Shown here one piece after another: positions 18,387 to 40,728 of a DNA stretch of 64,000 nt (its first letter is position 1; every line of letters begins with the position of its first letter). Made by a program: the position numbers and the translations under genes. Under the pieces are notes generated by a model. The model worked only from the letters and a program-made list of their open reading frames with translations, did no database searches and was not told the origin of the DNA. The DNA comes from Amoebophrya sp. A120 (lineage: Eukaryota > Protista > Dinoflagellata): the NCBI GenBank assembly GCA_905178155.1, contig CAJINV010000008.1, forward strand, positions 682,001 to 746,000. The letters are read 5' to 3'.

Positions 18387-18554
18387 AGCGAGCGGAAGGC
18401 GATCCTAGTGTGCTTGCGGGCCATTTCTCTATTGTGGCGGCTGCCGACCCAGGCGACTGCTAACGAAAGCAACAAATCATCCCAAAAGCCTGGGGGACTA
18501 CGCAATGCGGGCGAAATTGGGCGCGCTACTTTGAAACGCGGCGAGAACTTCGAG

Positions 18555-19475: not shown

Positions 19476-19479
19476 GGTC

Positions 19480-19809
19480 GCCAATCGGAGGGAAATGTCG
19501 GAAGCTGGTGGCCAATCGCGGCAAAATATCACAAGCGGGTGGCCAATCGAGACAAAATCTTGCAAGCTGGTGGCCAATTGGGACAACATGTCACCAGTAA
19601 GTGGCCAACCGGGGCAAAATCTGGGAAGCTCATAGCCAATTGAGGCAAAATATTATAAGCTGGCGCCGATCACAGCCAAACTGCTGCAAGTGGGTGGCCA
19701 ATTCGAGCAAAATCTTGCAAGTTTGTGCCCAATGGAGGCAAAATATCATCAGTCGGCGGCCAATAAAGATGAAATCTTGCAAAATTGCGGGAAATTAGGA
19801 CAACCTGTC
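19480..19809. repeat. Degenerate 31-bp minisatellite, left part (consensus about GCAAAATCTTGCAAGTTGGTGGCCAATNNNN)
   Basis: CAAAAT-like anchor recurs about every 31 nt (19646, 19677, 19708, 19739). Confidence 0.85.
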
Positions 19810-21018
19810 CGATGAAATTCGATCATGAGTGATCATTTCTCAGCTGTCCAGGAGCATGAGCGATGAGTGACAATTGAGGACTACACGTACGGGAAGATAT
19901 TGGTGGAGTAGCAGAGTCGTTTGAGCTTATGAGGAGTACGCGTAGCTTTTGTGGTTCGTAGGTCGATATATTCTTCGGAATAAAGACGTAGATGCACGAA
20001 TCAAAGAACGACGATGATGATTTTGGACTCACTGTGATTCCGAACATATAGGCCATGTTTTTTTCGCAATTGGGGACCAAAAAAAGAGGAAGAAGCTGCT
20101 CGTCGGAGGACGACGCGAAAGAAGCACGCCTTTCAGTGCATTTTAGATGTGCCGCCGCTGTGTCCGCCTTATGTAAAGGTCAAAAGTACAAGAAATCCGT
20201 CGATTCGGTCTTCATTTTCATCGCTTTCAGTACTATACTATGTCGGTTTTGATCGTCGTAGTCGTCCGCGGCTGTATTTAGATGGTCGCGCTCGGTTTTA
20301 GATCACGTTTGACTACTTCTAGTTCATTTCCGCCCTGCATCTGTTGCTCGGTCTTCGAGGAGATACGCGTCTCCGCTGTCAGTACTGAGAATACTGCTAA
20401 GAAGCACTTGAGGAAGTACCTTTTGTCGCTCGTTTTCGGTCGCGATTAGCCCCGTTTTTAGTACTATTTTTGTCTGTATTCGCCCGCTATGAGCGCGCCA
20501 TGCAAATCATTGAAAAACCTATGGGACGACGTCTCTGACCGTGTCGAAGTACTAGAGGAACGTATTCTAAAGCTAGAGCAGGATCTACAGAACCGTGAAA
20601 AGAAGACACTACTAAGGTCGGTCGGGGCCGTTTTTAAGAACCTTTTTATGCGCATCATGCCATGCAAGTAAGGTTATTTTTTCGTTACAGTGTTGTAGGT
20701 TTAGGGTTTAGAACAGTTCCCCGTATCTTTTTGCTCGCATTTCACCCAAGGATATCAGTGAATCTGTATTCTACCATGCAAATAGTACCCAGTACGAATA
20801 GTATCAGCGGCGTATCATTATCCTAATCGCGGAGCACATCATGCTCCTTCTCGCGATGTTTTTGTCCTCTTTTTCGGCCCCACGCGGGATCCCGAAGGCG
20901 ATGCGAGACGCCATTAGAGTCATCTTTTTTACGCACAGCGTCACGACTTTGACGTCGATGTTCCGATCGCACGACGCGCTCGACAACCGAGGGGCACACA
21001 CTCTTCCATTTTGTATCG
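19810..21018 (+). repeat. 5' LTR (CGATGAAA...TTGTATCG)
   Basis: Matches 39515-40723; four substitutions seen by eye (19881, 19938, 19941, 20026). Confidence 0.97.
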
Positions 21019-21033
21019 TGGCACCCCTGACGG
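21019..21033 (+). promoter_or_regulatory. Primer-binding site TGGCACCCCTGACGG
   Basis: Directly abuts the 5' LTR and begins TGG, the complement of tRNA CCA. Implied tRNA 3' end ...CCGUCAGGGGUG-CCA resembles tRNA-Arg (inference). Confidence 0.8.
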
Positions 21034-21251
21034 TTAGACAAAGCACCCGCAAAAGATCAACCAAAACAACAAATCATACGGAATCAGACCTGTACCACTT
21101 TTACTATCGCGACCATTATTTAGAAACTGAATCGGCGGTGGCGGAGTTAATAAACAGCAACATAAATAATCGGCGGCGGCACATAGTAACAAGTGTGAGA
21201 GAGTTTTTCACCAAGAAACTAGTAGAGAAGAAGAAGAAAAAAACAAACGAG

Positions 21252-24200: not shown

Positions 24201-24284
24201 ATTTTAACTGCCGAAGAGAAGGCGCGGCTCCAGGAGCTGAAGACCCTCCTCGGACGAGTCCAAGTCTCGCAGCTTTTTCAGTAG
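21252..24284 (+). CDS. ORF1, Gag-position protein (about 1010 aa)
   Basis: First in-frame ATG downstream of the PBS (MQSFNW...). The ORF-track start at 20841 lies inside the LTR. Gag identity rests on position only; no CCHC knuckle recognised. Confidence 0.7.
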   Translation: MQSFNWRELPTKEQLKAEKEPRKRLGFIEGLNPNTRSMYIKRERFFATVAMHQSSSSTTFMPTCISGKTWPLKVTNLAGEDAAEELPTWIQCAVVVPALESLSEEVKKKKLHVATYFLRARSFLTYFTKKHTADDRVLICKWIAVNVFTISTDFITKNMRFEAGANGFFSTRMLMSQFGVLTENGQPVPYSDSMDSVVDKWVEYWGIDEEGVYVDDDADEDFLASISDIECVEFKIYGEDDDQLSNLFAYEPAAPSPNKALMGSTFDQKNNNLLAEGPSELPTPGQMQTPAVTTPNSKKPAASIAPPAATTTPAVIPALHDYLTKILPAPAPAQQSQNKLPIVDDGLHQVPSTPMPPASRKPSKTAADTMSTKDQIAALIEDVLIEKSPFPVKHCKYLTPYLGAKSDVLCSDYNTTLRKIAQSYEVPEQMLTAPKMKAGGMFEKGLESLELPKSAAVFGFEKNEALQVTDAEFKSFPVLEDTPYNWIEERDLILTWMFQTADARSYKKHQQQSHLYPLTMSAFRRITKKKVSMWVQCMRTADQSQTLSVAQRFLNGFTLAEKTFARDQQNWLDGSKAGEYRVLVKTVGNYVDAIWSDTAMVFLELQMGLWTLVMLRLAIDCERAERFRISTEEARVLQDVFVGRWPKLEEIFNNVYDRCIRPHEMHQRRASLAVFDVCLAAMGVLQSNQKGVVAMEKKTDRTGAMNTPQYHLREKKNYYVPKQDYGTVSGVQQVKMSMASAHGLLAQGDDDIEVFDNANPRSVDARSRSGTMQSADVPIWSWETDENASFGAAGSDKLAGVPDCPVPESKRWTTREYQAHTEWWARWEMQLTGAHFLYIVYDDGKDLRGIKVFGPGPKGGSECFLAIFDCCYSGMRCGCADLQVDSKAKESARAKLKDLGVTHADVELVQKVHTAFLASGKRKYYEKFAGKTTAEQKITGEEYRIRNPTKISFPECEQLGEQYRNLRVAIPTPSGFITEAGPEILTAEEKARLQELKTLLGRVQVSQLFQ

Positions 24285-24324
24285 ACCCCTCTATCGCACC
24301 GAAATTTTATACCGGTAGAGGGGT
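24272..24324 (+). promoter_or_regulatory. Candidate -1 ribosomal frameshift signal
   Basis: G CTT TTT, 6-nt spacer CAGTAG, then 12-bp stem ACCCCTCTATCG / CGGTAGAGGGGT (24285-24324). ORF2 is in the -1 frame, which is open across the ORF1 end. Confidence 0.6.
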
Positions 24325-27300
24325 GATCAACGAAGAAGAAGATTTTTTCAACAACTATGATTTTTTTGAGGACGGAGAACTTCTTGATGTCTTTTGCACC
24401 CCGTGCGTCGCAGAAACAAACTTCCTCATGATCGAAAACGACGCGACGCCCAGCTCTAGCGAGTGGGACGGCGGGGTCAGCGTTGATGACAGTTTTGAGG
24501 AACAGGGCGCTTCATTTTCCCTTTTCTCCGTCGGGATCACCGCACGAAATTTTGAAGAGCGTGTAGACATTGCGGCACGAGAAGCAGCAGAATTTAACTG
24601 GGACGAGTGGATTCGCAGTGATGGGTGGAAAGCGGAAACGTTTTCAGTAACAATCACGACCCACGATTCGTCGCTGCGTTCCGCCCCTACGCTCGACATC
24701 TCGACGACGAGCGAGTTCAAGATCCCGGACGATCTAGCCGAGGCGTGCGGTGGCGAAGACCACAAGAGCGCAATCGCGGGGTTCGGAAAATACCTATCTG
24801 AAAACAAAAATGTAGTACGCGAATTTTTGAAGCGGTTCATCGATCGGAACTGCGAGACACCTGCTGATAGAGCCCAACTTGTGCATGACTACCAGTCCGA
24901 GCTTTGTGCGGGGCACATTTACGCGAAGATTTTGAACTTTGCGCTTTTTGGGGCGTCGTCGACCAGCGGGTCCCGACAATTGGAGACACCACCGCTGCCG
25001 TGTACCGGCACCACAGGGCACGATGTTGAATTTTCGCAGGCCGACGTTGTTGACCCACCAGAGCGGATTAGGCGTCTGTGGGAACGTGCAGACACGCTAG
25101 TCAAACTCTTCCAGGAGGAATGTTCACGGTTCGACTGGGAAGAATGCGTGCACGTGTGGAAGCAGAGCATCGACTCGTTGGAATTTGCTGTCGTAAATAA
25201 AACGACCGGAGCACTCCTTGGAACTCCAGGCGAATCCTGCCCCCGTATTTCGATCCAACGAGGATCTTCGGAGTTGGGGAACCCGTTCGTACTCCCTGTG
25301 GATGACCAGTCGGACCGAACGCGTGCTGACGTCTGCGTGAAATTTGGTCGGTTCCTCGGCACTGCGGACGCGGAAGCGATGGCCCGCACTTTCCTGCATA
25401 AGAAAGAGGTCTACACGAAGGTGGTAGGTAGCAAAAGATGCGTTTTTGAATGTAGTTGTGCTCCGGAACTCTGTCATGGTGTTATCTGGGCAAAAGCATT
25501 CCAAGTATTCAAGGAGAAGTGGTTCTCAACGCTCGCTGCGACAAAGTCGCCGACACCAGCACGAGCTTCTGTACCCCGCGAGCAGATACGGACATTCGGA
25601 GCATTGCAGAGTGCCTCCTTCTTGACGGACGACGCAGTGGATTTTGGCGATTCGAAATCGTGCCTCATCGAGTTCGACGCGGAGGAAATACTGCCGTTCT
25701 CGCTTGTCGTCACACGCCCTGCGTTGACATCGGCGTTGCTAGCCGACAGGTCGTACGACGAAGAATTTTCACCGTCAGTCGCTATTGCTGCAGATCAACT
25801 CGAAGAAGAGAAGCAAGAATTTTTCAATGCGGCGCAGCATCCCGAGAGTGTTCTTCTTGCAGCAGAAGGAGCAGCGGACGAACTGTCACCAGAATCTGTC
25901 GAGTATGGCGCTCATTTGTACGACGCGATATCCGCAGGACCGGCGGAGGAAGAAAATTTATTACGCTCAACGCCACTTGTGGCCGGTCCTGCGGTAGAGG
26001 CGATGATACAACCGCAGGACCGGATCCGGTATTCTTCTAACGCTTTTCATTTTGAAAATAGCATGAAGAACGATCCGGTCCTTGTTGATGATGATTGTCA
26101 TGTGTCCCCTGAGCTGTCGCTCCCTTCCCCTAAACTACAACAACAGCGTGGTGACAGCGACGACAGCGACTCGTGTCCCGACCTCGCGCAGATAGCGGCA
26201 GAATTTCGTATGGCAACTGAAATTCCGTGCCAATCGATGGCGGACTACATCGAATTCCTCACGGCCGTGACCAAGTGTGAGTACTTGTTTGAGCAAGACG
26301 AGATCGCAATGGGGTACGAAGCGGGGTGGGCGACGCGTCACCATGGGAAGGTGGATGGAGTACCAGGGTCGATGGACTTTGTCGAGTTCCCGCAGGCGTC
26401 ACGATGGACGGTTTTGCGAAGACCGCATGTTGAGGATCGATCGCTGCAGAGGAAGCATACATTTTTGTACTTCAAGAACAATGGCCGCGTTTCTCGGCTA
26501 CAACGTGCAGGAAACGATCCGGAAAAATTTTATTACCACGGCGAAAAGGACGTCTTGGACTTCGTCGCGCTCCCGCGAACTGTTCGATTTGTTTCAACGG
26601 AACGGTCTGGATCTCATGAAACAATTCTTATGAGTCTCGCGGCGTTGGAATACAGCGACGTCTTGCCTGCGATCTTGAGCCCGATGCTCTGTGAGCCCCC
26701 GTGTACTTTGACAGATCTCCCACAAATCGACTCTGACCCTAGCCTGGGGCTACCGTCACGGCAATTCTACCATGTTGCGAAAACCATGAAAGAAGGTGGT
26801 GTCGCGACTGTGTGGGGTGTGTTTGGTGCTGGAAAGAGTCGGAGTATCGCAGCAGTAATCGCTGAATTGATCAAGAAGAACGTGTACAACAAAATCCATT
26901 TTGCGGCGACGCAGAATGTCGCTCTCGACTCGGTCCTGAAGCGACTTACGAATTTGAAGATCTCTGTCGTCCGATACAGCAGTAAAGCGTACATCGAGAG
27001 GGCCGGCGCGACGAGCACCTGCGATTTGGAAAACGTTGCTGCGAAAGTTGCGAAACGGCGTGCCAAATCTGCGTTCGCGGAATATGAAAAAATAAAGAAG
27101 CGGAGGTCTGTCATGCTCAAGAAGAAAGCACTTTTCCCCAAGGTGGAGAAGAAATACCTCCAGGTAAAGAAAGAATGTGTCGAGATTGTCAACAGAAACA
27201 CGAAGTGCTTTTGCTCTACTGCGTCGAGCCGTCCGGCAACGGGGACGACGAGCGAGCTGACGATTTACGACGAAGCAGGTCAAAGTACCGAGTTTGCCGC

Positions 27301-30300
27301 AGCGACAATCCTGGTCGGGACAAAGCGAGTGATCATGGTTGGTGACCAGAACCAGTTAGGGCCGGTATTGAAATCGACGCGCAAGAACAAGAGGCACAAA
27401 GCGGTAGACGGGCTGGTAGATACGATATTCGAGGAAAGCATCGACGTCGAGGTCTGCGGAGAGAGCATTTTTGCTCGACTCGTCGAAAAAGGGCGCGGAG
27501 CGACAGTTTTCATCGACACCCAATACCGTTGTCCTCCGGTGCTTGCGGACTTTCTATCGGAGGAATTCTATGGTGGAAAACTAAAATCAGCACCGTCGGC
27601 TCCTGCAGAAGCGAAATACAGCTTCGAGACGCCTGTTGTGTCCGTGCGCACGAGTGCGGACATACTCCTCGCAGGGCAGCAGTCTCCGGACGGAAAACTC
27701 CCACCGTACATCTCCCCGTCAACAATCGCGGCTGCGAGCCGGATCCGGCAAATTCTGCTAGATAAGGGCGTCACCGCGGCCGACATCAAAGCGGTCAGTG
27801 TGTATCGTGCGGGGAATGAAATAAAATCCCGCGTTGCTCCGATGACAATAGCAGGTGTCGACTCGTACCAAGGAGGAGAAGTGCAAATTCTGTTCGCGTT
27901 CATCATGTGTCCGAAGTCTGGTCCGACGATCTGGGTCGCTAACAGGAAACGGATCCTTGTTCTCCTTTCGCGCGCCGTGTCGTGTTTGTTCGCTTTCATG
28001 CCCGACGAGGTTGAACGTGAAGAAGGATGCCTCGAGAGGTTCAGCAAGTACACGAAAACAACGGAGAAGTGCCTTCATATCCAGAACCCAGAGGATGCCG
28101 TGAAGATGGCGGTCAAGAAAGCGCCGGAAGTGATCATAACGACCGCGGAAAGCACCTGCGAGCCTGCTGTTGTCGAGCACATCGTCACTGACCTCGACGG
28201 GGGTGAATCACACGCACCTGAATCGCCGTGGTGTTCTTCGAACATGATGTCTGCTTGCCTCGGCGCTCCTGCAGATGGCGGGATGCACAAGATTACAGAA
28301 GCAGTCGACACCGAGGATTTGATGTATTTTGACTTCGAATCGCAGGCAGATCTTGTTTCTGATGACTCCGTTATCGCAGCGCTTCGTGGCGACAGCGATG
28401 CTGCCGTATCCGCGATCCGCGACGCAGAAGCTGCGTGTACTGGCCTATGGCTAGATCCCCACGCCTTCGGAGAAATCACCGCTGGCACCCTTCGGGTGGT
28501 CGCGCCTCTCGCGCCAGAAGATACACTGAAAAGCGGAAAGAACCGGTACGGAAATAAGGAGATTTCAGCACACGAGGTTTTCCGCACGAAGAACGGATGC
28601 AGTGTGTGGATCGGTAACTATGCGGCAGCAGTAGCAGAGAAGAAAAATTTCGACACGCATATCAACATGACTGCGAATGTAGAAGAGATCGACGGATGCA
28701 ACTACCACTACCGCGTTCCGCTAGTTTTTGGCGCCCTCCGGCGGAACATCAGGTCTGTCCGCATGAAGTTCAAGACAGTTCTCCGGCGCGTTCACGCGGG
28801 AAAGAAGGTATTGTTTTTCTGTGTCGCCGGGAAGGACCGTTCGTCTCAAGGCGCAAGAATGTTGGCGTACTTCCTTGACGCCGAACGACCGGCGCTCGAG
28901 ATCCAGCAGATTATTTCTACTGCGAGGCCAGAAATTCGGTACTCTTTTCCCCGGCTGGACAACTTCTTCACACAAATCATCGCTGCTGATACTTCAACAC
29001 GAATCCGGCTTCTTGACCCCGACAACACACGTATTGAACTTCTCGTCGAGGACGCAAAGGCGAACATGGCTTCTTCTTTTTTTTCGCTTGACCCAGACGT
29101 TGTCGCAGAAGATCGGTCAGAGGTCCCCCCTGTTATCCAGACGACAGCGCCGGCAGTCGCGGAGATCCCACAGTCGAACTTCGTGTACCGCAGGACAGCT
29201 ATTGCGAGCCACACGTACAGCCGCAATTGGAGACTTATGAATTACAACCCGGACTCGCTCAACTCGTTTTTTGAAAACAGACCAGAACATGTAGACGCGC
29301 TTTTCGAGTACCGCTCTGCGACGACAATATTCCCAGAGACGAAGCTAACTGAGGACACAGCGACGATTGCGACGAAGAATCTGGAGAAGAAGGGGCATGA
29401 TGTCGTGCATTTTTTGAACGAAGATAAGAAAGGAGAGCATGGTCTTTCTGTCGCGACACCGAAGGGCGAGCTCGCAGAGGGGCAGCTGCTTCCGCACTCC
29501 ATCACCCGTGGTCCGTCGCGGGAAGGACGGCTTGCACTTTTGGAATACGAGAATTTTTTTGTCGTCGCGGAGTATGCCCCGAATCGGCGTCCAGGACAGT
29601 ATGAGCAGTATGACACTGACATCCGGGGGTACCTCCGGGAGCTGGTGAAGAATCTCCGAAAACCATTCATCTTGTGTGGTGATCGGAACGTCACCCCGGA
29701 AGCACGTGACGTTTCAGCGCACCCCCGGTACTCCGACAACATACCATCGACGCGCGAAGTCGAAGATCGTGTTCCGTATCGCGCACTGATCGAAGAATTT
29801 GATCTTGTTGACGCGTGGCGCGCTTTGAACCCCGATGCTGAAGGGCACTACACATCGTTCTACCAGCAGGGAAACCTCTTACGACAAAACGCAGGAGTGC
29901 GGATCGACTTGTTTCTCGTGCAGAAACCGCTTATGAAGTTTGTCAAGCACTGCGGCATCGTGACCACGATTCACAAGGCGAAAGGGGACCACCACCCAAT
30001 CTACCTCGACATGCTTCTTGATTTCGGAACAGAAACACTCCGGCAAAAAGCACGAGAAGGGCTTGACTTCGTGCGATCTCTCCCTGTCGGTGACGACCCT
30101 GCTGTCGCGACCGCGCGTGCGCGAAACGCGACCCCTTTCGTAGGATATCGAGAATTCTTTTCCACGTTCAACACCCTCGATCTTGAAGGGGACGAAGAGC
30201 AGGCGTCGAAAGACGACGAGGAGGACGAGGATGAGGAGCCAGATGCTCCTGGTGGAGAGTCGGAAAAAGACGCATTCAAGGCGCTAGACATGCTCATGGA

Positions 30301-33300
30301 GGGGTTCCAGGACGCGTGTGCGGAAGCGTTCGCGAAGTTCGACACGAAGAAGGAATATTTGAAAGTCGTTTCTGTTCTGCAAGAATGGGTCGATGGAAAG
30401 AAGGCAGCGGGGTTTTCGTGTAGCACGATTTTCCAGATGCTCATGATGGACGACGCGACCGCCGCCATCTTTGGTGTCGGCGACGCAATGCTGAAACTCC
30501 TTCTCAACATCGGCGCCGCGAAGAAGCTGAATTGCAAATTTGGCAGCAAAAAGACTCAGACCCTCTCGGGGTTTGCGAAGTCCTGCGGGTACATCGTACA
30601 AGGAGGGTGGATTTCGGTGCCAGCAGCTCTCGTTAATGACCTCCGCGCGATGGCGCGGATCCCACCAACACCACGTCTTTGCCGCAGGTTGCTGGGGAAG
30701 CTTGCGTTTGCGCCGACAGCGCTCGCGATGGAATATTCGCGCATCCTGCCTACTCTGACAGCGTTATCGCGGAAAACAATGCAGCAGTACTTGAAGGACG
30801 CTTTGACAGAAGAGTCGATCGCAGCGTTCGAAATAATTATCAACTCAGCTGCAATAAACCCGCTGTGTCCGATCGACTGGGAGAAGGTCGATTCTGGGTT
30901 GTGGATCCCGCTGGGACAACCAGATGGTCATGCAGTTGGATGGGGTGCAGTTTTGATCACGATCGACCGCGAATGTTTCTTCTCGGACGCAGTAGACAAT
31001 GTTCGCGACTTCATCCGGATTCACGGGATCAAATCGGCTCCGTTCCCAGAGCGACTCCGATACCGGTGCCCCGCCGAATCTGAAACATACGCGAGCTTGG
31101 GGTATCACCAGTACCTCGACTACTTGATGCAGAACAGGACGCGATATTGGACGAACGATAATTCCAACGTGGGCCAGATCGAGACTGAGATGCACCGCTG
31201 CTCGGTGAAATCTTGGAACACAGCAATCGGGTACTTGGCGCGATTTTTCCAATCCCCGGGTCTTGAACGGCTGGTCCTTCCGGAGTCGCTGCTTGTATGG
31301 GCAGACTGCGCGGGAAGAATGCATAAGAACTGCGTCGTAGCGCAGACACTGGTCCAGCAGTTGGTCGCGTCACCAAAGAAGCTTCTTGCAGTTCTTTTCC
31401 CGCATGTTGATTTCGACAAGAGAGACAAAATCTCTGAGAAAGAGAAGGAAGAGTTCAAGAAAGCAGCGGCGGCAGCAATGACGACTTCTTCGTTCCGTGT
31501 CGCAATTTCGCCTGAGGGAGAAGATGTCGTTGATCCATCGCGTGGGGGTGAATCTGCATTCCTCCTAGTTCAGGGTCAGGAGTTCCCGACACCGGAGACT
31601 TTGCCGGGATTTGAGTACCCGGAGGGCCCGATTTTTTCGGAAGAGAATTTCGACGACGCAACGTTTTTGCACGGATCTTTCTTCCCATCGCAGGTGCGAG
31701 ACGTGATCGAGGATGAAGAAGAAGAGAAGCCGCTCTACCAGTATAAGATTACTTCTGTGGAGCGCAGTGCAGCGATCCTGTCCACCATAAAGTCACGCGC
31801 AGATCGGATTCGAGTTTTCGAATTCGATCAAGTTTTCTTTGACGACGATGACTACACGCTGGCGCGAAAGGGACTACTCCTCCTCAAAACAAGGACGAAA
31901 ACTTCTTCGGAATTTTGGCTGGTGATGGCGCACGACGTTCTTCGTGGGACAGCTGCGGTGGAAGCTGCGCTTGCAGAGATTGTAGGGATCAAAATAACGC
32001 AAGAACAGTTTTTAGACCGGTACTGTGGCGAGTTTAGCCACAAGGTGACTTCTGACAAGTATCCGCTCCGTGTCGTCGCGCACACCTCTGTTCGAGAAGT
32101 CTACTGCAACTACGGCGCACAGCAATTTGTGGATTTCTCGCACTCCGTGAGTATGGTGTACTACACGCCCCGCAGTGGGTATGAGGAATTCCGGTACCCA
32201 ATGACTACCGGTATAAACGTCCTCCGGATTAGACAAAAATCAGTTGGATCATCGCAGATCGAAGACCTCGAGCTTCTCTTCCGCATCCGCGAATTCCGGG
32301 TTGATGATAGTGTTGCCGTGCGCGCTTGCGAACATCTTCCGATTCTCGACTTGATCAACCCGCGTCTCGCTTCTTGTTTCCATGACTCGACGACAAATTT
32401 TGGATTTGCAAAGAGGACCGCTGAAGAAGACGATTTTCTTGCCGAGAAGCGCAAGAGGGGATCCATGGACGAGAACTCACTCGAGGCCGAAGAAGGAGAT
32501 TTTTTTTGCCCGCAGTCGGACGCAGAAATTTTACCCGAGGGGGGTACGGCCTCGGCAAAAGACGGGGAGGACACCGCCTCGGCAAAAGAAGGAGGCGCGG
32601 GAGTGTCGCCAGAGCAGAAAAAGCCGTTGTATTTCCGGATGGATTCTGATGATGAAGAGATAAATGACGACGGCGAGACAACAGAGTTGATCAACCTCAT
32701 CAAGAAACGGAAGAAGCCAATCACGATCCACGACGTGCACGACATTTACCGGAGTCTGATCAAAAACTCTGACTTCGTTGGGATGCCGAATCTCCTCCGG
32801 CAGCTCCCGGGTGCGAAGAAGAGCGAAGATCGCGGTCCGATCAAGTTGACAGACGATGAACTTCTCGCGCTACATCAACGCGACTTCCACCGCCCTGCTA
32901 AGGAGCTAGCGTGGGCGCTCTCGTGTGCGGGGTACGAAGTAACAGAAGAACGGTGCAAGAAGATCATTACTTTCAAGTGCTACTGTCGCGGGGTGAAGTT
33001 TAATCGACACTATCCGAAAAAACGCGCAAGCTTGAACCCGCCTTCGGTGCACGATTGGCATGCTGATCTTCTCTACTGCAAGTGGTCTGACGGAGTCCTC
33101 CACCTCCGCGACAGAATTCCGGAGTACGACGAGAAACCGCTCACGAAGGAAGAATGGTCGAAGGTCGATCGCGCAGACATTTACTCCATGATTGGCACTG
33201 GCATGTGGGACAGCGACACGGTTCCGGTGGAGCGGGAAAGCATGACGAAACAGTTTATCAGATGCGAATCGTCGAAGGGGTTCAACGTTAAGTGCTTCTT

Positions 33301-36300
33301 CCTCAACGTCAGCGACACCCGTGCACGCGGACAAGCAGTGCTTTCTTTGCCAAGCGTAAAAACAGACGTCCCTCTTAACCCGTTTTTTGCACCGGACCGC
33401 GCGACAGGAGTCGTCTCGGAGCAGCAATTTATGTTCAAATGTCTTTGGGGAGATTTGCATCCGATCGCACTCGAGCTGCAACTTTCGCGAGAAGAAAAAT
33501 GCAGCCTGGTCAACGCGAAAATGGGGATGATGTCGTCGGTCAACATGGAGTGGCTCTTGCCAGGGCGCGACACGCTTTTCCAAGTGCAACGGTCTCTTGT
33601 CGGTCTTGTCGATCTGCACCTCGTCCGGGTCATGATGCAACCCCGCGTACAGCGAATGCTTCGTGCTCGTACGCGCGACAGGTATGGCTTGATGATGCCT
33701 CCGACACGTGACACGAGTGTGAACAAGCAGGAACTGATCCTCTTCGAACATCCGCAGCACGGCCTTGTGGAAGGAACACTTGAAGCACAAAAGAGCAACA
33801 CGATTGCTGCTGCTGGTGGTCGGACGTACGTGGTCATCGGAGAAGCCGCTTTGCACGAGCGAGCGCGCCGTGCGAAATTTCCGTACTCGTACTTTGCGAC
33901 TTTCCCGCGGCACGTTGCTTTGAAAATCAACCTTGTGTACGGTGACTGGAGTTCCTACTTGGTCAAACCCCTGCAGAGCGACCCGATTGAAGGCCCTGTG
34001 AGTGGTGCTGTGATTGAAGAAGCATGGCGGCAAGCGTCTCTACAACCAGCTGGGTTTTTTCGTGTCCGCGCAGGAGGACAGCACGCCCTCGCTTTTGAGG
34101 CGAAGCAGGGCGAGCCAGTGATTCACACAATTGGATTGCACAAGATCGAGACGGGTATTTTGTGCTTTACGCGGTCTTCTCCTGTTCTTGGGGCACCCCG
34201 GCACATATACGGGTACCGTATCCCCAACGGGATCGCCGTAAACGGCGTCCGGAGAGATGCGATGTACTGGCAGTGGCATACACACGTCCCCGGAAGTTAC
34301 GATGCGGAAACAGCAGAGGACGCTTTCTCAGTAACAGCGCGTCTATGGCTGAAGCGAATTGATCTTGAACAATGGGCTGGATCCGGCCGGTTCAACGCGC
34401 TCGGCGGCGTTGATGAATTTGAAGACACACGGCCCGCTCCTTCTGTCGCCCCTGTCGTTGTGGCGCCCACTGTACGACAACGAGATGAGCCGTTCTTCGC
34501 GTCTATTTTCCACGAAGCTGCTTCTTTAGCTGCGCTGTCCGCTCGCGTGCGCAGGATCCCGGAACAGATTGCGAAGTCTGTCGTCCAAACGCCATCTGGA
34601 TTCGAAGTAGTCTTGGGTGACAATAGGCTCCTCCTCGTCGAAAACACACAACTAAACGAATGGCGGTTCGAGACGAAGAACCGCGAAACAACATGCCTTC
34701 AGTTGTTTGCAGAAAATTCAGAGGACAGCACATCCGCATTTTCTGCTTGCGGTCTTGCGGTCGAAGCTGCTTCCGTCGCAAATTCCCCGGGAACCTCGTT
34801 GTACAAGCTGACGGAAGCGTGCTACCAGTACACTGCTGGTGGATCGTGGGACGAGGAAGATGCGGTTTGCTATTTCAATGCAGCTCGTGTGGCACCGGGA
34901 GATTCCGTTCCAGAACAGTACGTCACGTGCAAAGTTTTTTTCGATGCTGCAGACGCCCTGGAACAACATTTCCTGCCATCGGATTTTGAACTAGAAGAAC
35001 CGCACGATCCCGGAATTCCTTCCTTCTGTCGCGTGCGTGAATCGACGACAGCAGAGAGCATAGTCGCAGCACAAGAAAAGCAACTAGAAGATGCTGTGAA
35101 GCCGCCCGTGGAAGTCGCGGGGACAGTTGCGAAGGGTCAGTTTTCGGACCGCGTCGTGGACTCTGTCGACATTGTGATCGACGCAGTCCGGAAGGGAGAA
35201 ATTGTTGCAGGGCACGACTTAGATGCGTTCGAGAAGAACGCGTTCTACATCGGAAAACACCTCCCCGGGCTCGCGTACTACTTGCGGGACCGCGTCGCAC
35301 TGCTAATTGCGCGATTAGACGCACCGGAAACTCCACCAGAGGGCTCTACGTGGGAAGAGATTCGACAGTATGTTGTCGACTTCATCGTCTCTGCCATCAC
35401 TGATACCGGGTGTGTCGCAGGACCCCAGTTTGATGTCGAAGGCGCGAAGACGCGGCTCCGCGGGTGGGTTGAAGGATGCAAATTGCGGAAAGAAAAAGAG
35501 GCAGAGGAGATTTTCCAGTCGTTGCTGGCCATCCTCGAGTCACCTTCTGGCGTGCATGACCGCGCGCGACTCGACTTGTGCAATGGGACTATCACTCTGT
35601 CGACTGCTGAGGCCACAGGACCACATGCAATCGAAGTTCTCCTCCGCCACTTTCAAGGACAGGCGCACCTCGTGTCGGGGTTTACCGGAGGGAGCCGTGA
35701 TACGAACCCGGCTGTTCTAAGGATGCGGGTGTACCTCCAGGACAGTCGGACCGGACGACTCCACCTCACACCATGGCTAAATCAATATGTCATGAGGTGT
35801 TGGGGTCGATCTGCCCCGAAATGCGAAACGCTTGGGTTTGCATTTGGTGTTTGTGACCTCGTCAAACTCGGTTACCGTCCTTGCGGGCTCGAGAGCGCGT
35901 TCAACTTCCCAAACGGCGCGGCACTACATGTTGCGAACCTCATCAAGCTGCGAGGTGCTTCTCCTGGAACAGAGACGGCAACAGTAAAAGCAGTGCAGTC
36001 CCGCTTCCTGACAGCGCCAGGCGAACAAGACGGTGACTTGACGCTCGTTGCCGGGCAGACTGCAACTGCGGTGATCCGTGTTGATAACTTTCTCGCAGGG
36101 CAGCGGATTTGCATCTTCTTTTCGAACCCCGGAGACAACGAGCGACTGATTTTGACGCACAATGGGACCGTCGTTCCTCTCGTGATGCCAGTGCCTTCGT
36201 CACGGGAGATTCGCCTATCGGTGGAAACGACGAAGCAGCGAGTGAAGATTAAGAACGCAAATATCGGGCTGACGATGAAACCGCTGGACGGGGAGGACCC

Positions 36301-37435
36301 GGTCCATTTTCGACAGCAACTGGAGGTCGTCGGAAGCGAAATTGGCCTCGATGCTGCAATGCGTGTCCTCGACCCCGATGTAGACGACGACATCGCCGAA
36401 GAAGAGACGACGGATGCGACTTTTGGAGCCGCCGGAGCAGTGAGTACGAATCCAGACTTGACCCCAGAGTACCTCGAGAACTGCAAACGCGAACACGAAG
36501 ACTTTATGAAGACTCTGAACTCTTCGAACGAAGGATCGTCGCAGTTCCAAGCAGAGCTCTACCTCCAGCTGTTGCGGACGATGAACTACGGCTCACTTCG
36601 TCGCGCATGTGAAAAAGACGGGTACGACATCGAGGAGACGATTTCTTTGTGGGAGGCGTTTTGTTTTGCGATCGCGGCGTGGGCAGGGCATTCCGGGTTC
36701 ATGACAGATGGTCATCAAATACCAAAATTCGATTTCCCGGGGTGTGGCGTGGAACTACTGAACCCCCACGCTTCGGTGGACCCACAGCCCCGTCGTGTGC
36801 GGAACCCTCCGGAGTTGGATTGGATTCTCGGGCAGCTGGCTACTCAGGACGTATCAGTCGGGATAATCGAACTTTTCGATTCTTTGAAGCACGGATTTGT
36901 GCGGTTCTGTTCGAACACGATGTGGGCGAAGAGGTCGAAACTCTACCAGGGGCGCATCGTGAACATCTACAAAACACCGAACAAAATCGCGAACCCGTGT
37001 TTTTGTTACAGCATAATACCGTCACAGATCCTCGAGACGCTCCGCCATTCGAGCTGCGTCGGCTACTTGGAATTGGACATAAAACGCGCGTTCCAGGGGA
37101 TTCAAGTCCACTTGGAATTATCCTTGTGGCTCAGTCTTGTCATCGGAACTGAAATCTACCTGCCGAACCGCGCCAGCCTGGGATTTGCCCCATGGCCTGG
37201 CATTTTTGGGCAACTGACGACCCCGCTGTTCGCGTCGCTGAAGTGCGGACCAGCAGCTGCGATGCAGTTTTTTTCCGAGATGCGAGGCCCACTTGCAGAG
37301 CTACATGAAGCACTAAAAGTTGCAGGGCTTGCTGGTCGATACAAGTCGATTGCAGAAGGATATCGAGCACACGTGACGCACCAAAAGCAGCAGCTGAACG
37401 CCTCCCAGAGGAGTGGGGGAGGACAGTTAGCATAG
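24323..37435 (+). CDS. ORF2, 4370-aa polyprotein: DUF4326 - SF1 helicase - DSP phosphatase - ExoIII/APE - RT C-half/RNase H - CYTH-like - integrase - JAB-like - protease-like - RT N-half
   Basis: Uninterrupted 13.1-kb ORF; individual motifs are listed in the domain features. Confidence 0.9.
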   Translation: MINEEEDFFNNYDFFEDGELLDVFCTPCVAETNFLMIENDATPSSSEWDGGVSVDDSFEEQGASFSLFSVGITARNFEERVDIAAREAAEFNWDEWIRSDGWKAETFSVTITTHDSSLRSAPTLDISTTSEFKIPDDLAEACGGEDHKSAIAGFGKYLSENKNVVREFLKRFIDRNCETPADRAQLVHDYQSELCAGHIYAKILNFALFGASSTSGSRQLETPPLPCTGTTGHDVEFSQADVVDPPERIRRLWERADTLVKLFQEECSRFDWEECVHVWKQSIDSLEFAVVNKTTGALLGTPGESCPRISIQRGSSELGNPFVLPVDDQSDRTRADVCVKFGRFLGTADAEAMARTFLHKKEVYTKVVGSKRCVFECSCAPELCHGVIWAKAFQVFKEKWFSTLAATKSPTPARASVPREQIRTFGALQSASFLTDDAVDFGDSKSCLIEFDAEEILPFSLVVTRPALTSALLADRSYDEEFSPSVAIAADQLEEEKQEFFNAAQHPESVLLAAEGAADELSPESVEYGAHLYDAISAGPAEEENLLRSTPLVAGPAVEAMIQPQDRIRYSSNAFHFENSMKNDPVLVDDDCHVSPELSLPSPKLQQQRGDSDDSDSCPDLAQIAAEFRMATEIPCQSMADYIEFLTAVTKCEYLFEQDEIAMGYEAGWATRHHGKVDGVPGSMDFVEFPQASRWTVLRRPHVEDRSLQRKHTFLYFKNNGRVSRLQRAGNDPEKFYYHGEKDVLDFVALPRTVRFVSTERSGSHETILMSLAALEYSDVLPAILSPMLCEPPCTLTDLPQIDSDPSLGLPSRQFYHVAKTMKEGGVATVWGVFGAGKSRSIAAVIAELIKKNVYNKIHFAATQNVALDSVLKRLTNLKISVVRYSSKAYIERAGATSTCDLENVAAKVAKRRAKSAFAEYEKIKKRRSVMLKKKALFPKVEKKYLQVKKECVEIVNRNTKCFCSTASSRPATGTTSELTIYDEAGQSTEFAAATILVGTKRVIMVGDQNQLGPVLKSTRKNKRHKAVDGLVDTIFEESIDVEVCGESIFARLVEKGRGATVFIDTQYRCPPVLADFLSEEFYGGKLKSAPSAPAEAKYSFETPVVSVRTSADILLAGQQSPDGKLPPYISPSTIAAASRIRQILLDKGVTAADIKAVSVYRAGNEIKSRVAPMTIAGVDSYQGGEVQILFAFIMCPKSGPTIWVANRKRILVLLSRAVSCLFAFMPDEVEREEGCLERFSKYTKTTEKCLHIQNPEDAVKMAVKKAPEVIITTAESTCEPAVVEHIVTDLDGGESHAPESPWCSSNMMSACLGAPADGGMHKITEAVDTEDLMYFDFESQADLVSDDSVIAALRGDSDAAVSAIRDAEAACTGLWLDPHAFGEITAGTLRVVAPLAPEDTLKSGKNRYGNKEISAHEVFRTKNGCSVWIGNYAAAVAEKKNFDTHINMTANVEEIDGCNYHYRVPLVFGALRRNIRSVRMKFKTVLRRVHAGKKVLFFCVAGKDRSSQGARMLAYFLDAERPALEIQQIISTARPEIRYSFPRLDNFFTQIIAADTSTRIRLLDPDNTRIELLVEDAKANMASSFFSLDPDVVAEDRSEVPPVIQTTAPAVAEIPQSNFVYRRTAIASHTYSRNWRLMNYNPDSLNSFFENRPEHVDALFEYRSATTIFPETKLTEDTATIATKNLEKKGHDVVHFLNEDKKGEHGLSVATPKGELAEGQLLPHSITRGPSREGRLALLEYENFFVVAEYAPNRRPGQYEQYDTDIRGYLRELVKNLRKPFILCGDRNVTPEARDVSAHPRYSDNIPSTREVEDRVPYRALIEEFDLVDAWRALNPDAEGHYTSFYQQGNLLRQNAGVRIDLFLVQKPLMKFVKHCGIVTTIHKAKGDHHPIYLDMLLDFGTETLRQKAREGLDFVRSLPVGDDPAVATARARNATPFVGYREFFSTFNTLDLEGDEEQASKDDEEDEDEEPDAPGGESEKDAFKALDMLMEGFQDACAEAFAKFDTKKEYLKVVSVLQEWVDGKKAAGFSCSTIFQMLMMDDATAAIFGVGDAMLKLLLNIGAAKKLNCKFGSKKTQTLSGFAKSCGYIVQGGWISVPAALVNDLRAMARIPPTPRLCRRLLGKLAFAPTALAMEYSRILPTLTALSRKTMQQYLKDALTEESIAAFEIIINSAAINPLCPIDWEKVDSGLWIPLGQPDGHAVGWGAVLITIDRECFFSDAVDNVRDFIRIHGIKSAPFPERLRYRCPAESETYASLGYHQYLDYLMQNRTRYWTNDNSNVGQIETEMHRCSVKSWNTAIGYLARFFQSPGLERLVLPESLLVWADCAGRMHKNCVVAQTLVQQLVASPKKLLAVLFPHVDFDKRDKISEKEKEEFKKAAAAAMTTSSFRVAISPEGEDVVDPSRGGESAFLLVQGQEFPTPETLPGFEYPEGPIFSEENFDDATFLHGSFFPSQVRDVIEDEEEEKPLYQYKITSVERSAAILSTIKSRADRIRVFEFDQVFFDDDDYTLARKGLLLLKTRTKTSSEFWLVMAHDVLRGTAAVEAALAEIVGIKITQEQFLDRYCGEFSHKVTSDKYPLRVVAHTSVREVYCNYGAQQFVDFSHSVSMVYYTPRSGYEEFRYPMTTGINVLRIRQKSVGSSQIEDLELLFRIREFRVDDSVAVRACEHLPILDLINPRLASCFHDSTTNFGFAKRTAEEDDFLAEKRKRGSMDENSLEAEEGDFFCPQSDAEILPEGGTASAKDGEDTASAKEGGAGVSPEQKKPLYFRMDSDDEEINDDGETTELINLIKKRKKPITIHDVHDIYRSLIKNSDFVGMPNLLRQLPGAKKSEDRGPIKLTDDELLALHQRDFHRPAKELAWALSCAGYEVTEERCKKIITFKCYCRGVKFNRHYPKKRASLNPPSVHDWHADLLYCKWSDGVLHLRDRIPEYDEKPLTKEEWSKVDRADIYSMIGTGMWDSDTVPVERESMTKQFIRCESSKGFNVKCFFLNVSDTRARGQAVLSLPSVKTDVPLNPFFAPDRATGVVSEQQFMFKCLWGDLHPIALELQLSREEKCSLVNAKMGMMSSVNMEWLLPGRDTLFQVQRSLVGLVDLHLVRVMMQPRVQRMLRARTRDRYGLMMPPTRDTSVNKQELILFEHPQHGLVEGTLEAQKSNTIAAAGGRTYVVIGEAALHERARRAKFPYSYFATFPRHVALKINLVYGDWSSYLVKPLQSDPIEGPVSGAVIEEAWRQASLQPAGFFRVRAGGQHALAFEAKQGEPVIHTIGLHKIETGILCFTRSSPVLGAPRHIYGYRIPNGIAVNGVRRDAMYWQWHTHVPGSYDAETAEDAFSVTARLWLKRIDLEQWAGSGRFNALGGVDEFEDTRPAPSVAPVVVAPTVRQRDEPFFASIFHEAASLAALSARVRRIPEQIAKSVVQTPSGFEVVLGDNRLLLVENTQLNEWRFETKNRETTCLQLFAENSEDSTSAFSACGLAVEAASVANSPGTSLYKLTEACYQYTAGGSWDEEDAVCYFNAARVAPGDSVPEQYVTCKVFFDAADALEQHFLPSDFELEEPHDPGIPSFCRVRESTTAESIVAAQEKQLEDAVKPPVEVAGTVAKGQFSDRVVDSVDIVIDAVRKGEIVAGHDLDAFEKNAFYIGKHLPGLAYYLRDRVALLIARLDAPETPPEGSTWEEIRQYVVDFIVSAITDTGCVAGPQFDVEGAKTRLRGWVEGCKLRKEKEAEEIFQSLLAILESPSGVHDRARLDLCNGTITLSTAEATGPHAIEVLLRHFQGQAHLVSGFTGGSRDTNPAVLRMRVYLQDSRTGRLHLTPWLNQYVMRCWGRSAPKCETLGFAFGVCDLVKLGYRPCGLESAFNFPNGAALHVANLIKLRGASPGTETATVKAVQSRFLTAPGEQDGDLTLVAGQTATAVIRVDNFLAGQRICIFFSNPGDNERLILTHNGTVVPLVMPVPSSREIRLSVETTKQRVKIKNANIGLTMKPLDGEDPVHFRQQLEVVGSEIGLDAAMRVLDPDVDDDIAEEETTDATFGAAGAVSTNPDLTPEYLENCKREHEDFMKTLNSSNEGSSQFQAELYLQLLRTMNYGSLRRACEKDGYDIEETISLWEAFCFAIAAWAGHSGFMTDGHQIPKFDFPGCGVELLNPHASVDPQPRRVRNPPELDWILGQLATQDVSVGIIELFDSLKHGFVRFCSNTMWAKRSKLYQGRIVNIYKTPNKIANPCFCYSIIPSQILETLRHSSCVGYLELDIKRAFQGIQVHLELSLWLSLVIGTEIYLPNRASLGFAPWPGIFGQLTTPLFASLKCGPAAAMQFFSEMRGPLAELHEALKVAGLAGRYKSIAEGYRAHVTHQKQQLNASQRSGGGQLA
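25187..25503 (+). other. DUF4326-like domain in ORF2
   Basis: ISIQRGSSELGNPF ... RADVCVKF ... FECSCAPELCHGVIW fits the IGR.S.WGNPF / C.C.P..CHG pattern. Confidence 0.7.
26750..28060 (+). other. Upf1/DNA2-like superfamily 1 helicase domain in ORF2
   Basis: Walker A GVFGAGKS (26816-26839), ATQNVALD, IYDEAGQ, VGDQNQLGP, QYRCPP, VDSYQGGE, VLLSRA. Confidence 0.92.
28560..28980 (+). other. Dual-specificity phosphatase domain in ORF2
   Basis: VWIGNYAAA, HINMT, KVLFFCVAGKDRS (CX5R at 28820-28840), ARPEI. Confidence 0.88.
29225..30010 (+). other. Exonuclease III / AP endonuclease (EEP) domain in ORF2
   Basis: LMNYNP, PETK, EGR, YAPN, ILCGDRNV, LVDAWR, YTSFY, GVRIDLFLV, GDHHPI. Confidence 0.92.
30420..31320 (+). 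other. RT C-terminal half (motif C, thumb, connection) plus Ty3-type RNase H
   Basis: QMLMMDD (MMDD 30443-30454), KTQ...SCGYIV, PPTPRLCRRLLGKLAF, PDGHAVGWGAVL, CPAESETYA, TNDNSNV, VWADCAGR. Confidence 0.82.
31730..32300 (+). other. Degenerate CYTH-like domain in ORF2
   Basis: FDQVFFDDDDYTLARKGLLLLKTR resembles CYTH D.YFD..d..L....LR.R; the ExExK motif is not preserved (QYK). Confidence 0.4.
32850..33800 (+). other. Integrase-like domain (HHCC zinc site plus divergent core)
   Basis: LHQRDFH...KCYC, WHADLLY (first D), FAPDRATG...QF (second D); third acidic residue not evident. Confidence 0.68.
34130..34335 (+). other. JAB/MPN+-like motif in ORF2
   Basis: IETGILC ... WHTHVPGSYDAETAED approximates E...HxH-x7-S-x2-D, with an 8-residue spacer and T for S. 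Confidence 0.45.
35555..35880 (+). other. Retropepsin-like protease domain, divergent
   Basis: RARLDLCNGTITLS (for ALLDTGA...IS), VSGFTGG flap, FAFGVCDLVKLG (for ILG.DFL..g); lies upstream of the RT N-half as in gypsy pol. Confidence 0.5.
36740..37240 (+). other. RT N-terminal half (fingers, motifs A and B); no motif C before the stop
   Basis: DPQPRR, VGIIE, FCSNTMWAKR, GRIVNIYKTPNK, LELDIKRAFQGIQV (motif A, D at 37076), YLPNRASLGFAPWPGIF (motif B). Confidence 0.88.
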
Positions 37436-38215: not shown

Positions 38216-38974
38216 ATGCCCGAGAACACCAAGATCGACACGGCCACTGCCGGATCTTCTTCTGGTGTCGACAAGAAGCCCGAAGACAAGGTCGGTAAAA
38301 CCGCGCGCAAGCGCAACAGCCGTGGACAGTTTTGTGCGGGTGGTGCGCCCAAGGAAGCCTCGAAAGAGACTTCGATGAAGTCGAAGAAACAGCGACGTGA
38401 TTCTGCTGATCGCCAGCTCGAGGAGGACATCAAGAACTGTGACCGCATCCGGGAGCTGGACGACAACCCGTTTTTCAAGGAGAAACCCGATGACAATCCT
38501 GACTCTGCTCTGCAAATCGCGTACAGCACGTGCTCCCGCGAAAATCGAGAATTGAAAGAGGAAATGGCTTCTATGCATTCCGAAGTGCAGCGATTGCGCA
38601 ATGAAAACAATGACTTCAAGCGGGTGGAAGAAGTAGGTCGGTTGCGGGAACAGTTGTACAACACCCAGCGCGAGAATGCGGAATTGCGGGACGAAATTGG
38701 ATGGATCAAGGGCTACGGGAAAAAGGGAGGAAAAGGTGGCGAAAAGAAAGGGAAGTTCCGTGGGTTCCTCGACGAGGAGTTCTCCGATTCGGATGATTAC
38801 TTTGGAAAGAAAGGGAAAAAGGATGGTGAAAAGAAAGGGAAGAAAGGGGCCGGTAAAACGGGAATCAAGAAGGACGGTCCGGCGGTTTTCGACAAGGATG
38901 GAAAAAAAGGAGCGCTGCCCTTGTTGCACGGCAAAATCGATGCGCCTGCTACCCAGGATTCAACGTCTTCGTAA
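38216..38974 (+). CDS. ORF3, accessory 252-aa protein: coiled coil plus Gly/Lys-rich basic tail
   Basis: ATG-started ORF between pol and the 3' LTR; heptad-like ENRELKEEM...ENAELRDEI; KGYGKKGGKGGEKKGK. Confidence 0.7.
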   Translation: MPENTKIDTATAGSSSGVDKKPEDKVGKTARKRNSRGQFCAGGAPKEASKETSMKSKKQRRDSADRQLEEDIKNCDRIRELDDNPFFKEKPDDNPDSALQIAYSTCSRENRELKEEMASMHSEVQRLRNENNDFKRVEEVGRLREQLYNTQRENAELRDEIGWIKGYGKKGGKGGEKKGKFRGFLDEEFSDSDDYFGKKGKKDGEKKGKKGAGKTGIKKDGPAVFDKDGKKGALPLLHGKIDAPATQDSTSS

Positions 38975-39514
38975 GCAACACGCAGTGACACCATCCGATG
39001 CGATTTTAGATCTTTTGAACTCTCCATCATAGATTCCCGCATTACAAATTTGATCTTATCGTCGCGATAAAATTTTATAGTTGAAAGATCGCCACTTCAA
39101 AATACTACTCGCCAACAATCACGTCTTTTTATGTGGACTTCAGATTCTTATCCGGTACTAAGAAAAAAACCCTCGTAACCACAGCGAACATCAAATACAA
39201 AAAAAATTTCATAGGGTTAGCAAAAAGACATGAAAAATATATCCCCGTAAAAAGAACGCACAGCAGCCCGCGTTCATTCAAATACAAAAAAATAAGAAAA
39301 TCCTCAAATACAAAAACAAAAGAAAATATGAAAAAACCAAAAAATTTCCTTATCCTGAAAGACATGAAAAAAAAATAAAACAGCTTAGGGAGGATAAAGC
39401 GGACTTCTGTCGAAAACCCCTTGTAGAAATCACATGAGCCTCTTTTACTATTATTTTTTACTACCAACGTTTTTGGCATCAGTGCCATCACTCATGCTCC
39501 TGGAGCAGACGGCA

Positions 39515-40723
39515 CGATGAAATTCGATCATGAGTGATCATTTCTCAGCTGTCCAGGAGCATGAGCGATGAGTGACAATTGAGGATTACACGTACGGGAA
39601 GATATTGGTGGAGTAGCAGAGTCGTTTGAGCTTATGAGGAGTGCGTGTAGCTTTTGTGGTTCGTAGGTCGATATATTCTTCGGAATAAAGACGTAGATGC
39701 ACGAATCAAAGAACGACGATGATGATTTTGAACTCACTGTGATTCCGAACATATAGGCCATGTTTTTTTCGCAATTGGGGACCAAAAAAAGAGGAAGAAG
39801 CTGCTCGTCGGAGGACGACGCGAAAGAAGCACGCCTTTCAGTGCATTTTAGATGTGCCGCCGCTGTGTCCGCCTTATGTAAAGGTCAAAAGTACAAGAAA
39901 TCCGTCGATTCGGTCTTCATTTTCATCGCTTTCAGTACTATACTATGTCGGTTTTGATCGTCGTAGTCGTCCGCGGCTGTATTTAGATGGTCGCGCTCGG
40001 TTTTAGATCACGTTTGACTACTTCTAGTTCATTTCCGCCCTGCATCTGTTGCTCGGTCTTCGAGGAGATACGCGTCTCCGCTGTCAGTACTGAGAATACT
40101 GCTAAGAAGCACTTGAGGAAGTACCTTTTGTCGCTCGTTTTCGGTCGCGATTAGCCCCGTTTTTAGTACTATTTTTGTCTGTATTCGCCCGCTATGAGCG
40201 CGCCATGCAAATCATTGAAAAACCTATGGGACGACGTCTCTGACCGTGTCGAAGTACTAGAGGAACGTATTCTAAAGCTAGAGCAGGATCTACAGAACCG
40301 TGAAAAGAAGACACTACTAAGGTCGGTCGGGGCCGTTTTTAAGAACCTTTTTATGCGCATCATGCCATGCAAGTAAGGTTATTTTTTCGTTACAGTGTTG
40401 TAGGTTTAGGGTTTAGAACAGTTCCCCGTATCTTTTTGCTCGCATTTCACCCAAGGATATCAGTGAATCTGTATTCTACCATGCAAATAGTACCCAGTAC
40501 GAATAGTATCAGCGGCGTATCATTATCCTAATCGCGGAGCACATCATGCTCCTTCTCGCGATGTTTTTGTCCTCTTTTTCGGCCCCACGCGGGATCCCGA
40601 AGGCGATGCGAGACGCCATTAGAGTCATCTTTTTTACGCACAGCGTCACGACTTTGACGTCGATGTTCCGATCGCACGACGCGCTCGACAACCGAGGGGC
40701 ACACACTCTTCCATTTTGTATCG
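39515..40723 (+). repeat. 3' LTR
   Basis: Direct repeat of 19810-21018, followed by TSD CTGTC. Confidence 0.97.
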
Positions 40724-40728
40724 CTGTC

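Follow-up and report, generated by a model that had tools for sequence, protein, structure and literature searches.

A 20,914-bp LTR retrotransposon of Amoebophrya sp. A120 encodes its reverse transcriptase (RT) as two separately placed halves in swapped order. The element lies at 19810-40723 of the whole 64,000-nt stretch of DNA that we analyzed, here called the window. Its domain order is RT(C)-RH-IN-PR-RT(N), that is, the RT half with motif C (C-half), RNase H (RH), integrase (IN), protease (PR), and the RT half with motifs A and B (N-half), and a contiguous A-B-C RT domain is absent. Cutting a circularized Ty3 pol between motifs B and C would give exactly this order, so the circular permutation proposed in a preliminary description of this DNA stands. 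Judging from sequence, we think it probable that the element's protease cuts the RT halves free and that they then join as the two chains of one enzyme.

Boundaries, ends, and reading frames of the element

The ends of the element carry the following features.

19805..19809, no strand: left target-site duplication CTGTC, from terminal repeat comparison
19810..21018, + strand: 5' LTR, 1209 bp, with CGAT..ATCG ends
21019..21036, + strand: likely primer-binding site by position, with a TGG start, directly abutting the LTR
39487..39569, + strand: hairpin over the start of the 3' LTR, at the place expected of a polypurine tract
39515..40723, + strand: 3' LTR, 1209 bp
40724..40728, no strand: right target-site duplication CTGTC

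The two members of this direct LTR pair differ at 4 of 1209 positions (99.7% alike), and all 4 differences are transitions. The 5-bp duplication CTGTC flanks both outer LTR sides and the ORFs are open, which bears out the earlier claim of recent transposition. The insertion site is an array of 31-bp repeats (family D1) that runs on along both flanks.

LTR termini in Ty3/gypsy elements (Metaviridae) are usually TG..CA, with known exceptions. Here they are CGAT..ATCG and not TG..CA (19810-19813 and 40720-40723), and the primer site follows without a spacer, so integration would join a 3' G. No polypurine tract adjoins the 3' LTR; the closest purine run of at least 9 is at 39366, ~140 nt upstream. 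The junction hairpin has a 14-bp perfect stem in which 39491-39504 pairs with LTR bases 38-51, and its energy of -45.2 kcal/mol (z -4.09) was reached by 0/200 shuffles, as computed for the pre-LTR sequence plus the first 55 LTR bases. Both the CG..CG ends and the junction hairpin are known from the window element alone (n = 1). A 60-aa coiled-coil-like ORF lies within the LTR at 20489-20671 and is also present in the 3' LTR copy.

A 16.9-kb contig of run X1 spans 21019-37888 with zero differences and zero gaps relative to the window. Run X1 is possibly the window's source sample, and the matching contig is not independent. As a single contig that passes through both RT halves, it argues against a scaffolding error, and the misassembly that had been named as an alternative did not appear.

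Between the LTRs we found three ORFs, the second of which carries cargo domains ahead of pol.

21252..24284, + strand: ORF1, called Gag-like from its position, 1010 aa long with its Met at 21252
24134..37435, + strand: ORF2 polyprotein, 4,433 codons between stops, in the -1 frame relative to ORF1, whose end it overlaps
25244..25486 (aa 371-451), + strand: DUF4326 (Pfam E 5.7e-7)
26762..28000, + strand: Upf1-like superfamily 1 helicase (AAA_11 and AAA_12; E 3e-15 and 5e-15)
28586..28990, + strand: dual-specificity-phosphatase-like domain (E 0.0012, below the curated cut-off; also in 5 relatives)
29180..30019, + strand: ExoIII/APE-like nuclease domain (E 4e-5; also in 5 relatives)
38216..38974, + strand: ORF3, 252 aa, coiled-coil, Lys/Gly-rich

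ORF2 has no internal stop. Its residues are numbered here from nt 24134, after the preceding stop, and the numbers of the preliminary description were 63 lower. Pfam detects only the cargo in ORF2 (DUF4326 and the Upf1-like, phosphatase-like, and ExoIII-like domains) and gives no match for ORF1, capsid domain included. Acidic or low-complexity linkers border the ORF2 modules. The cargo of the relatives described below varies, with a PP2C phosphatase in P0022 and a NADAR domain in P0027 (P0015 also belongs to the varying-cargo set), and DUF4326 is near the N terminus in the window and ahead of the RT N-half in P0004. Relative P0005 shows copia-type rve and RVT_2 matches at aa 465-547 and 1148-1289, before the family's own pol, which probably represent a nested element or a merged gene model.

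Elsewhere in the window, several families of 250- to 400-nt elements with terminal inverted repeats occur (3001-3270, 6415-6790, 12345-12616, 45444-47710, and 54041-54317). They are MITE- or introner-like and recall the introners described in the accessible part of PMC7789003. Two host genes were recognized, an EMP70/TM9SF exon at 48961-49842 (E 1.6e-69) and a DegT/DnrJ aminotransferase, of a family common in bacteria, at 60535-61560 (E 1.6e-77).

The two halves of the reverse transcriptase

The pol modules follow the cargo in ORF2.

30266..30418, + strand: pre-C helical segment behind an acidic linker, with helicity predicted from its sequence and a relative's low-confidence model
30419..30880, + strand: RT C-half, with motif C, motifs D and E, and thumb
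30881..31390, + strand: RNase H, with D2264, E2317, and D2342 in 15/15 aligned rows and D2391 in 14/15
31754..32341, + strand: family-specific domain in the RNase H-integrase interval, from comparison with relatives
32816..33991, + strand: integrase-like domain, with an H/H..C/C zinc finger, D2978, and D3061, named from motifs
35381..35881, + strand: aspartic-protease-like domain, with D3757, D-T-G, flap, and G-x-x-D-L, named from motifs
36443..36820, + strand: family-specific helical extension that accompanies the RT N-half in its different positions, from comparison with relatives
36824..37225, + strand: RT N-half, with fingers, motif A, and motif B
37226..37333, + strand: post-B helical segment, with the ORF end soon after

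Motif C (MMDD) occupies aa 2104-2107 (nt 30443-30454) with aspartates D2106 and D2107, and motif C, thumb, and RNase H together span aa 2096-2419. A C-half profile of 11 rows (the window C-half, 9 short relatives, and P0019) matched the CaMV RT structure 8r0s from motif C onward as its best PDB match (E 1.9e-9), confirming that the MMDD segment aligns to an RT palm and thumb. MMLV RT followed at 2e-8 to 1e-7 and Ty3 RT 4ol8 at 0.045. The RT profile matches were to CaMV, MMLV, foamy virus, and Ty3 RTs only, which marks the sequence as LTR/Ortervirales-type. An ESM Atlas score of 0.87 for the C-half is a lead only. The preliminary description had placed a connection domain and RNase H after the thumb; a structural model of a relative instead resembles an RT thumb with one RNase H fold behind it (Z 9.4, rmsd 8.1, 173-185 residues aligned), and the window protein is accordingly predicted to have a single RNase H fold there.

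The N-half lies at the other end of pol. Its motif A, LDIKRAF, is at aa 4314 (D4315, nt 37076) and its motif B, LGFAPWPGIF, at aa 4349, so motif C stands 2,244 aa ahead of motif B in the window protein. ORF2 stops 83 residues past the motif-B Gly and its last DD is at aa 4084; there is therefore no motif C downstream of B, and the earlier observation that the ORF ends without a YxDD was correct. In the ESM Atlas the top N-half matches scored 0.96 to RVT_1-bearing clusters, a level that about 1 in 100 shuffled proteins also reach. The N-half gave E 0.24 against Pfam RVT_1 (profile positions 57-136). Alone it found no significant Pfam or PDB match, PDB searches with single halves returned no relevant match, and a 12-row N-half profile by itself found no RT in the PDB. 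A 17-row profile aligned the N-half weakly to CaMV RT 189-290 (independent E 1.7, conditional 9.5e-6). AlphaFold modeled the window N-half alone at a mean pLDDT of 38.6.

On CaMV RT the C-half aligns to 299-394, and the N-half match stops nine residues before 299. The two matches are adjacent and do not overlap, which indicates that the halves are complementary and that the cut falls in the short loop connecting the motif-B helix to the motif-C strand. The claims of a split into complementary halves and of a cut between motifs B and C thus both held, the N-half side with the weak match given above.

The intervening enzymes were assigned from motifs, and neither matched Pfam. The integrase-like domain, used also as a profile, found nothing relevant in the PDB either. 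One His and both Cys of its zinc finger are present in 13/14 rows and both Asp in 14/14. A Glu at D+35 is found in 1/14 rows, that of the window protein only and one residue off; the third carboxylate is not conserved. The target duplication of the window element is nevertheless a clean 5 bp. All 11/11 swapped rows keep the protease Asp, D3757. In the window protein a Phe-centered pattern marks two module borders, yet it turns up at six other places too.

Relatives and the order of their domains

A search of 1.84 billion protein representatives with aa 2040-3239 found 30 relatives. Half of the matches (15/30) were short fragments, covering the RT C-half, RNase H, or integrase, that are uninformative on order. 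All 14 long relatives carry both RT halves, each once. Ten of these have the window order, with C-half/RNase H first and then integrase, protease, and N-half, and they end 47-76 aa past motif B, compared with 83 in the window; other copies with the order of the window element, which the preliminary description had called for, thus exist. Three of the 14 have the halves in normal order with a B-to-C gap of 228-269 aa; among these three, only P0020 shows the complete order IN-PR-N-C-RH, since P0019 begins within the protease and P0023 is without a protease match. The remaining order is that of P0003 (N-half, integrase, protease, C-half/RNase H), in which the halves are in normal order and 1,824 aa apart, and 7 additional full-length copies of P0003 came from other records. 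In fragment P0013, B and C are 112 aa apart. This is the shortest distance among the 30 relatives, none of which has the canonical short B-C loop, and the canonical PR-RT-RH-IN order is found in 0/14 long relatives.

Relative P0005 is from Amoebophrya sp. AT5.2. A metagenome scan gave nine loci, of which L001 is the sole family member; L002-L009 were dropped, as they match by the ExoIII-like domain alone. Locus L001 encodes P0004 and has the same ORF1/-1 ORF2 layout as the window, and its ORF1 is homologous to the window ORF1 (E 3e-23). At the ORF1/ORF2 overlap L001 has an in-phase G GGT TTT, and the window has a less regular T run just before the ORF1 stop. The L001 contig has no LTR pair. 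After pol it carries long ORFs at 18475-21561 (1028 aa) and 21752-23167 (at least 472 aa), with no Pfam match. A second X1 contig (16,354 bp, similar depth) is a diverged family member that matches the window in short pieces and in order at the ExoIII domain, motif C, RNase H, the integrase end, and the 3' region; the N-half was not seen in these short matches. Viral contigs contained no family locus, and word-based homologue searches found nothing. Pfam RVT_1 reaches E 0.05 in just 1/11 long relatives, so such elements escape standard annotation and are probably undercounted in protist genomes.

No substitution occurs at the catalytic residues D4315, D2106, and D2107 or at the RNase H D/E/D in 15/15 full rows, at 17-38% identity to the window. 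N-half and C-half identities covary (rho 0.60, Mantel p 2e-4, 105 pairs), which shows co-inheritance and not contact, as any two linked domains of related sequences do likewise. Within-cluster variation (1-15 variable sites per cluster) is too small for a selection test.

Trees of the N-half (15 rows), the C-half/RNase H (15), and the integrase (14), built from family members only, largely agree. All three share four groups: the window with P0003; those two with P0004 and P0005 (loose in the C-half tree); P0011, P0014, and P0015; and P0009, P0022, and P0031. The sister of the window is P0003, in which the two halves have traded places, with support of 99/97 in the C-half tree, 81/85 in the N-half tree, and 94/94 in the integrase tree. 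In the C-half tree the swapped P0027 joins the linked P0019 and P0023 with support of 99/98. AU tests reject the swapped order as one clade (p 1e-11 and 4e-5) and the four linked rows as one clade (p 1.7e-5), and a 16-row tree requires five order changes. Neither main order is monophyletic, so the order changed repeatedly; the preliminary description had not anticipated more than one fixed swap. Because the trees are unrooted with long branches, they do not show the direction of change, which we infer. The swapped and linked orders are two openings of a ring PR-N-C-RH-IN, of which Ty3 is a third, and P0003 breaks the ring. A possible route is tandem duplication of pol followed by loss.

Segments at both cut ends recur across the family. 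The 40 residues past motif B keep gapless spacing in 16/16 rows, and a helix-like segment ending in Trp/Tyr lies ~20 residues ahead of motif C in most rows. The preliminary description was right that helical-looking segments flank the cut; they are real and recurring, but they are also present in unsplit relatives, and P0013 has little beyond them between B and C. They therefore resemble an insertion subdomain with the break inside it, and since the linked forms and P0013 carry both, the B-C loop insertion probably came first. Left-out profiles built from swapped rows recovered the post-B segment in 3/5 other rows, with one strong match, but never the pre-C segment (0/5), so the helices are weakly conserved. 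From sequence, the zipper role that had been suggested for them is conceivable.

Assembly of the halves and comparison with known systems

In the mechanism that we favor, Gag-Pol would be made by a -1 frameshift at the ORF1/ORF2 overlap and the element's protease would free the modules. The N-half would give fingers, motif A (D4315), and motif B, and the C-half motif C (D2106, D2107), thumb, and RNase H; the halves would then fold together, with D4315 meeting D2106 and D2107. An ancestral insertion in the B-C loop, with its two helical segments in all relatives, likely made the loop a tolerated break point, and the flanking helices may add interface. Halves that have no need of a covalent link would be free in their polyprotein position, and we propose this as the origin of the three orders. 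AlphaFold of the single-chain P0020 (aa 4118-4945, 17 rows) gave a mean pLDDT of 50.7 and was confident for the thumb and RNase H only, with pLDDT <50 through most of the RT core. Three raw RNA runs under the same species label yielded 1, 1, and 2 partial reads and were uninformative on expression and splicing.

The halves might instead complement each other uncut, within one un- or partly cleaved polyprotein or between two in a particle. This is compatible with the Phe-centered pattern, which is not specific to module borders, and with the one-chain joining stretches of three relatives (228-269 aa) and of P0013 (112 aa). We nevertheless consider it unlikely. Integrase and protease are normally released from the polyprotein in LTR elements; here they lie between the halves in two of the three orders and must normally be released, and the protease Asp is invariant.

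Rejoining at the RNA level, by back-splicing, trans-splicing, or circular RNA, could yield an ordinary one-chain RT. The cyclic order PR, N-half, C-half, RNase H, IN fits 14/15 full rows, and unusual splicing is reported for the probable host group in the accessible part of PMC7789003. P0003, however, would require another event, the removal of IN and PR; the post-B tails of 47-83 aa end at a normal stop in 11/11 swapped rows; and the longest word common to the break regions is 11 nt, a length of at least which 38/452 random region pairs reach. On these grounds rejoining is improbable. We think equally little of an inactive split RT mobilized by the intact RT of another family: the integrase triad does look incomplete, but at 17-38% identity every catalytic residue of RT and RNase H is still in place, a conservation for which a passenger would have no use, and the 30 matches include no short B-C loop member (shortest 112 aa).

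Joining of the halves by split-intein-like protein trans-splicing is very improbable, for although there are extra segments at both cut ends and a window Cys soon after motif B, no intein/Hint family matched these fragments with an E limit of 10, relatives do not conserve the Cys, and no His-Asn precedes motif C. We give just as little credence to an assembly artefact or a one-off rearranged dead copy, since the matching X1 contig, though possibly from the window's own sample, runs through both halves with zero differences, the ORF is open at both joints, and the order is common to 10 relatives from other records and locus L001.

A two-chain assembly of cleaved halves remains our preferred reading, and in the literature searched (mostly non-subscription, without Repbase and supplements) no natural split or permuted RT was found. 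Nor does that literature report a natural RT that draws its catalytic aspartates from two pieces placed apart. The family preserves a series that begins with a 112-aa insertion, continues with 228- to 269-aa linkers, and ends with complete separation in either order, so that the path toward a split enzyme can be tested, and a natural split site with its own putative docking helices could guide split-RT tools.

Ty3/gypsy elements (Metaviridae) have the pol order PR-RT-RH-IN and an integrase with HHCC and D,D(35)E motifs. The window element resembles them in its LTRs and 5-bp target duplication, in a likely primer site starting with TGG, in an ORF1 that is Gag-like by position and has pol in the -1 frame, in an RT palm and thumb with one RNase H behind them, and in a pol order that is a circular permutation of theirs. 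It differs in its two-piece RT, the integrase upstream of the protease, the CG..CG termini, the lack of a polypurine tract, the third integrase carboxylate that is not conserved, and a polyprotein of 4,433 aa that includes helicase, phosphatase-like, and ExoIII-like domains as cargo. As its domain order and the contiguity of its RT depart from theirs, we do not file it in Metaviridae, although it is Ty3-type in working. Ty1/copia elements (Pseudoviridae) have the order PR-IN-RT-RH and an RVT_2-type RT; membership there was rejected, since the order differs and neither half matches RVT_2. The case appears evenly balanced for a new giant LTR retroelement lineage of marine protists, with a two-chain RT of freely movable halves and departing end processing, in which an integrase without the third carboxylate joins CG ends and a hairpin stands for the polypurine tract.

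Birnavirus and permutotetravirus RNA-dependent RNA polymerases (RdRps) are permuted to C-A-B by the move of a short motif-C segment inside one folded chain. Motif C likewise stands ahead of A and B in the window element, but it moved together with thumb and RNase H, 2,200 aa off and with other enzymes between.

The bdelloid LTR retrotransposons Juno and Vesta have extra ORF3s encoding a DEDDy exonuclease or GDSL esterase, and the accessible part of their description does not mention a split RT (PMC5408684). Accessory enzymes vary by family there as here; theirs are separate ORF3s, whereas the window cargo is fused before pol. The supplements of PMC7789003 may list elements like the window's as unclassified repeats.

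The closest analogue is the type I divided RdRp of splipalmiviruses, which, in the accessible part of its description, is cut between motifs B and C into F, A, B and C, D, lies on two genome segments, has a single reported division event, and has its reassembly backed by homology models (PMC10131275). The likeness, drawn from that part of the account, is one of working and not of membership: the cut is the same, but the window enzyme is an RT, both of its parts are in one ORF, and the order has changed several times in the family. The same break in RNA-virus polymerases and in this RT suggests that the B-C loop may be a seam common to right-hand polymerases in general.
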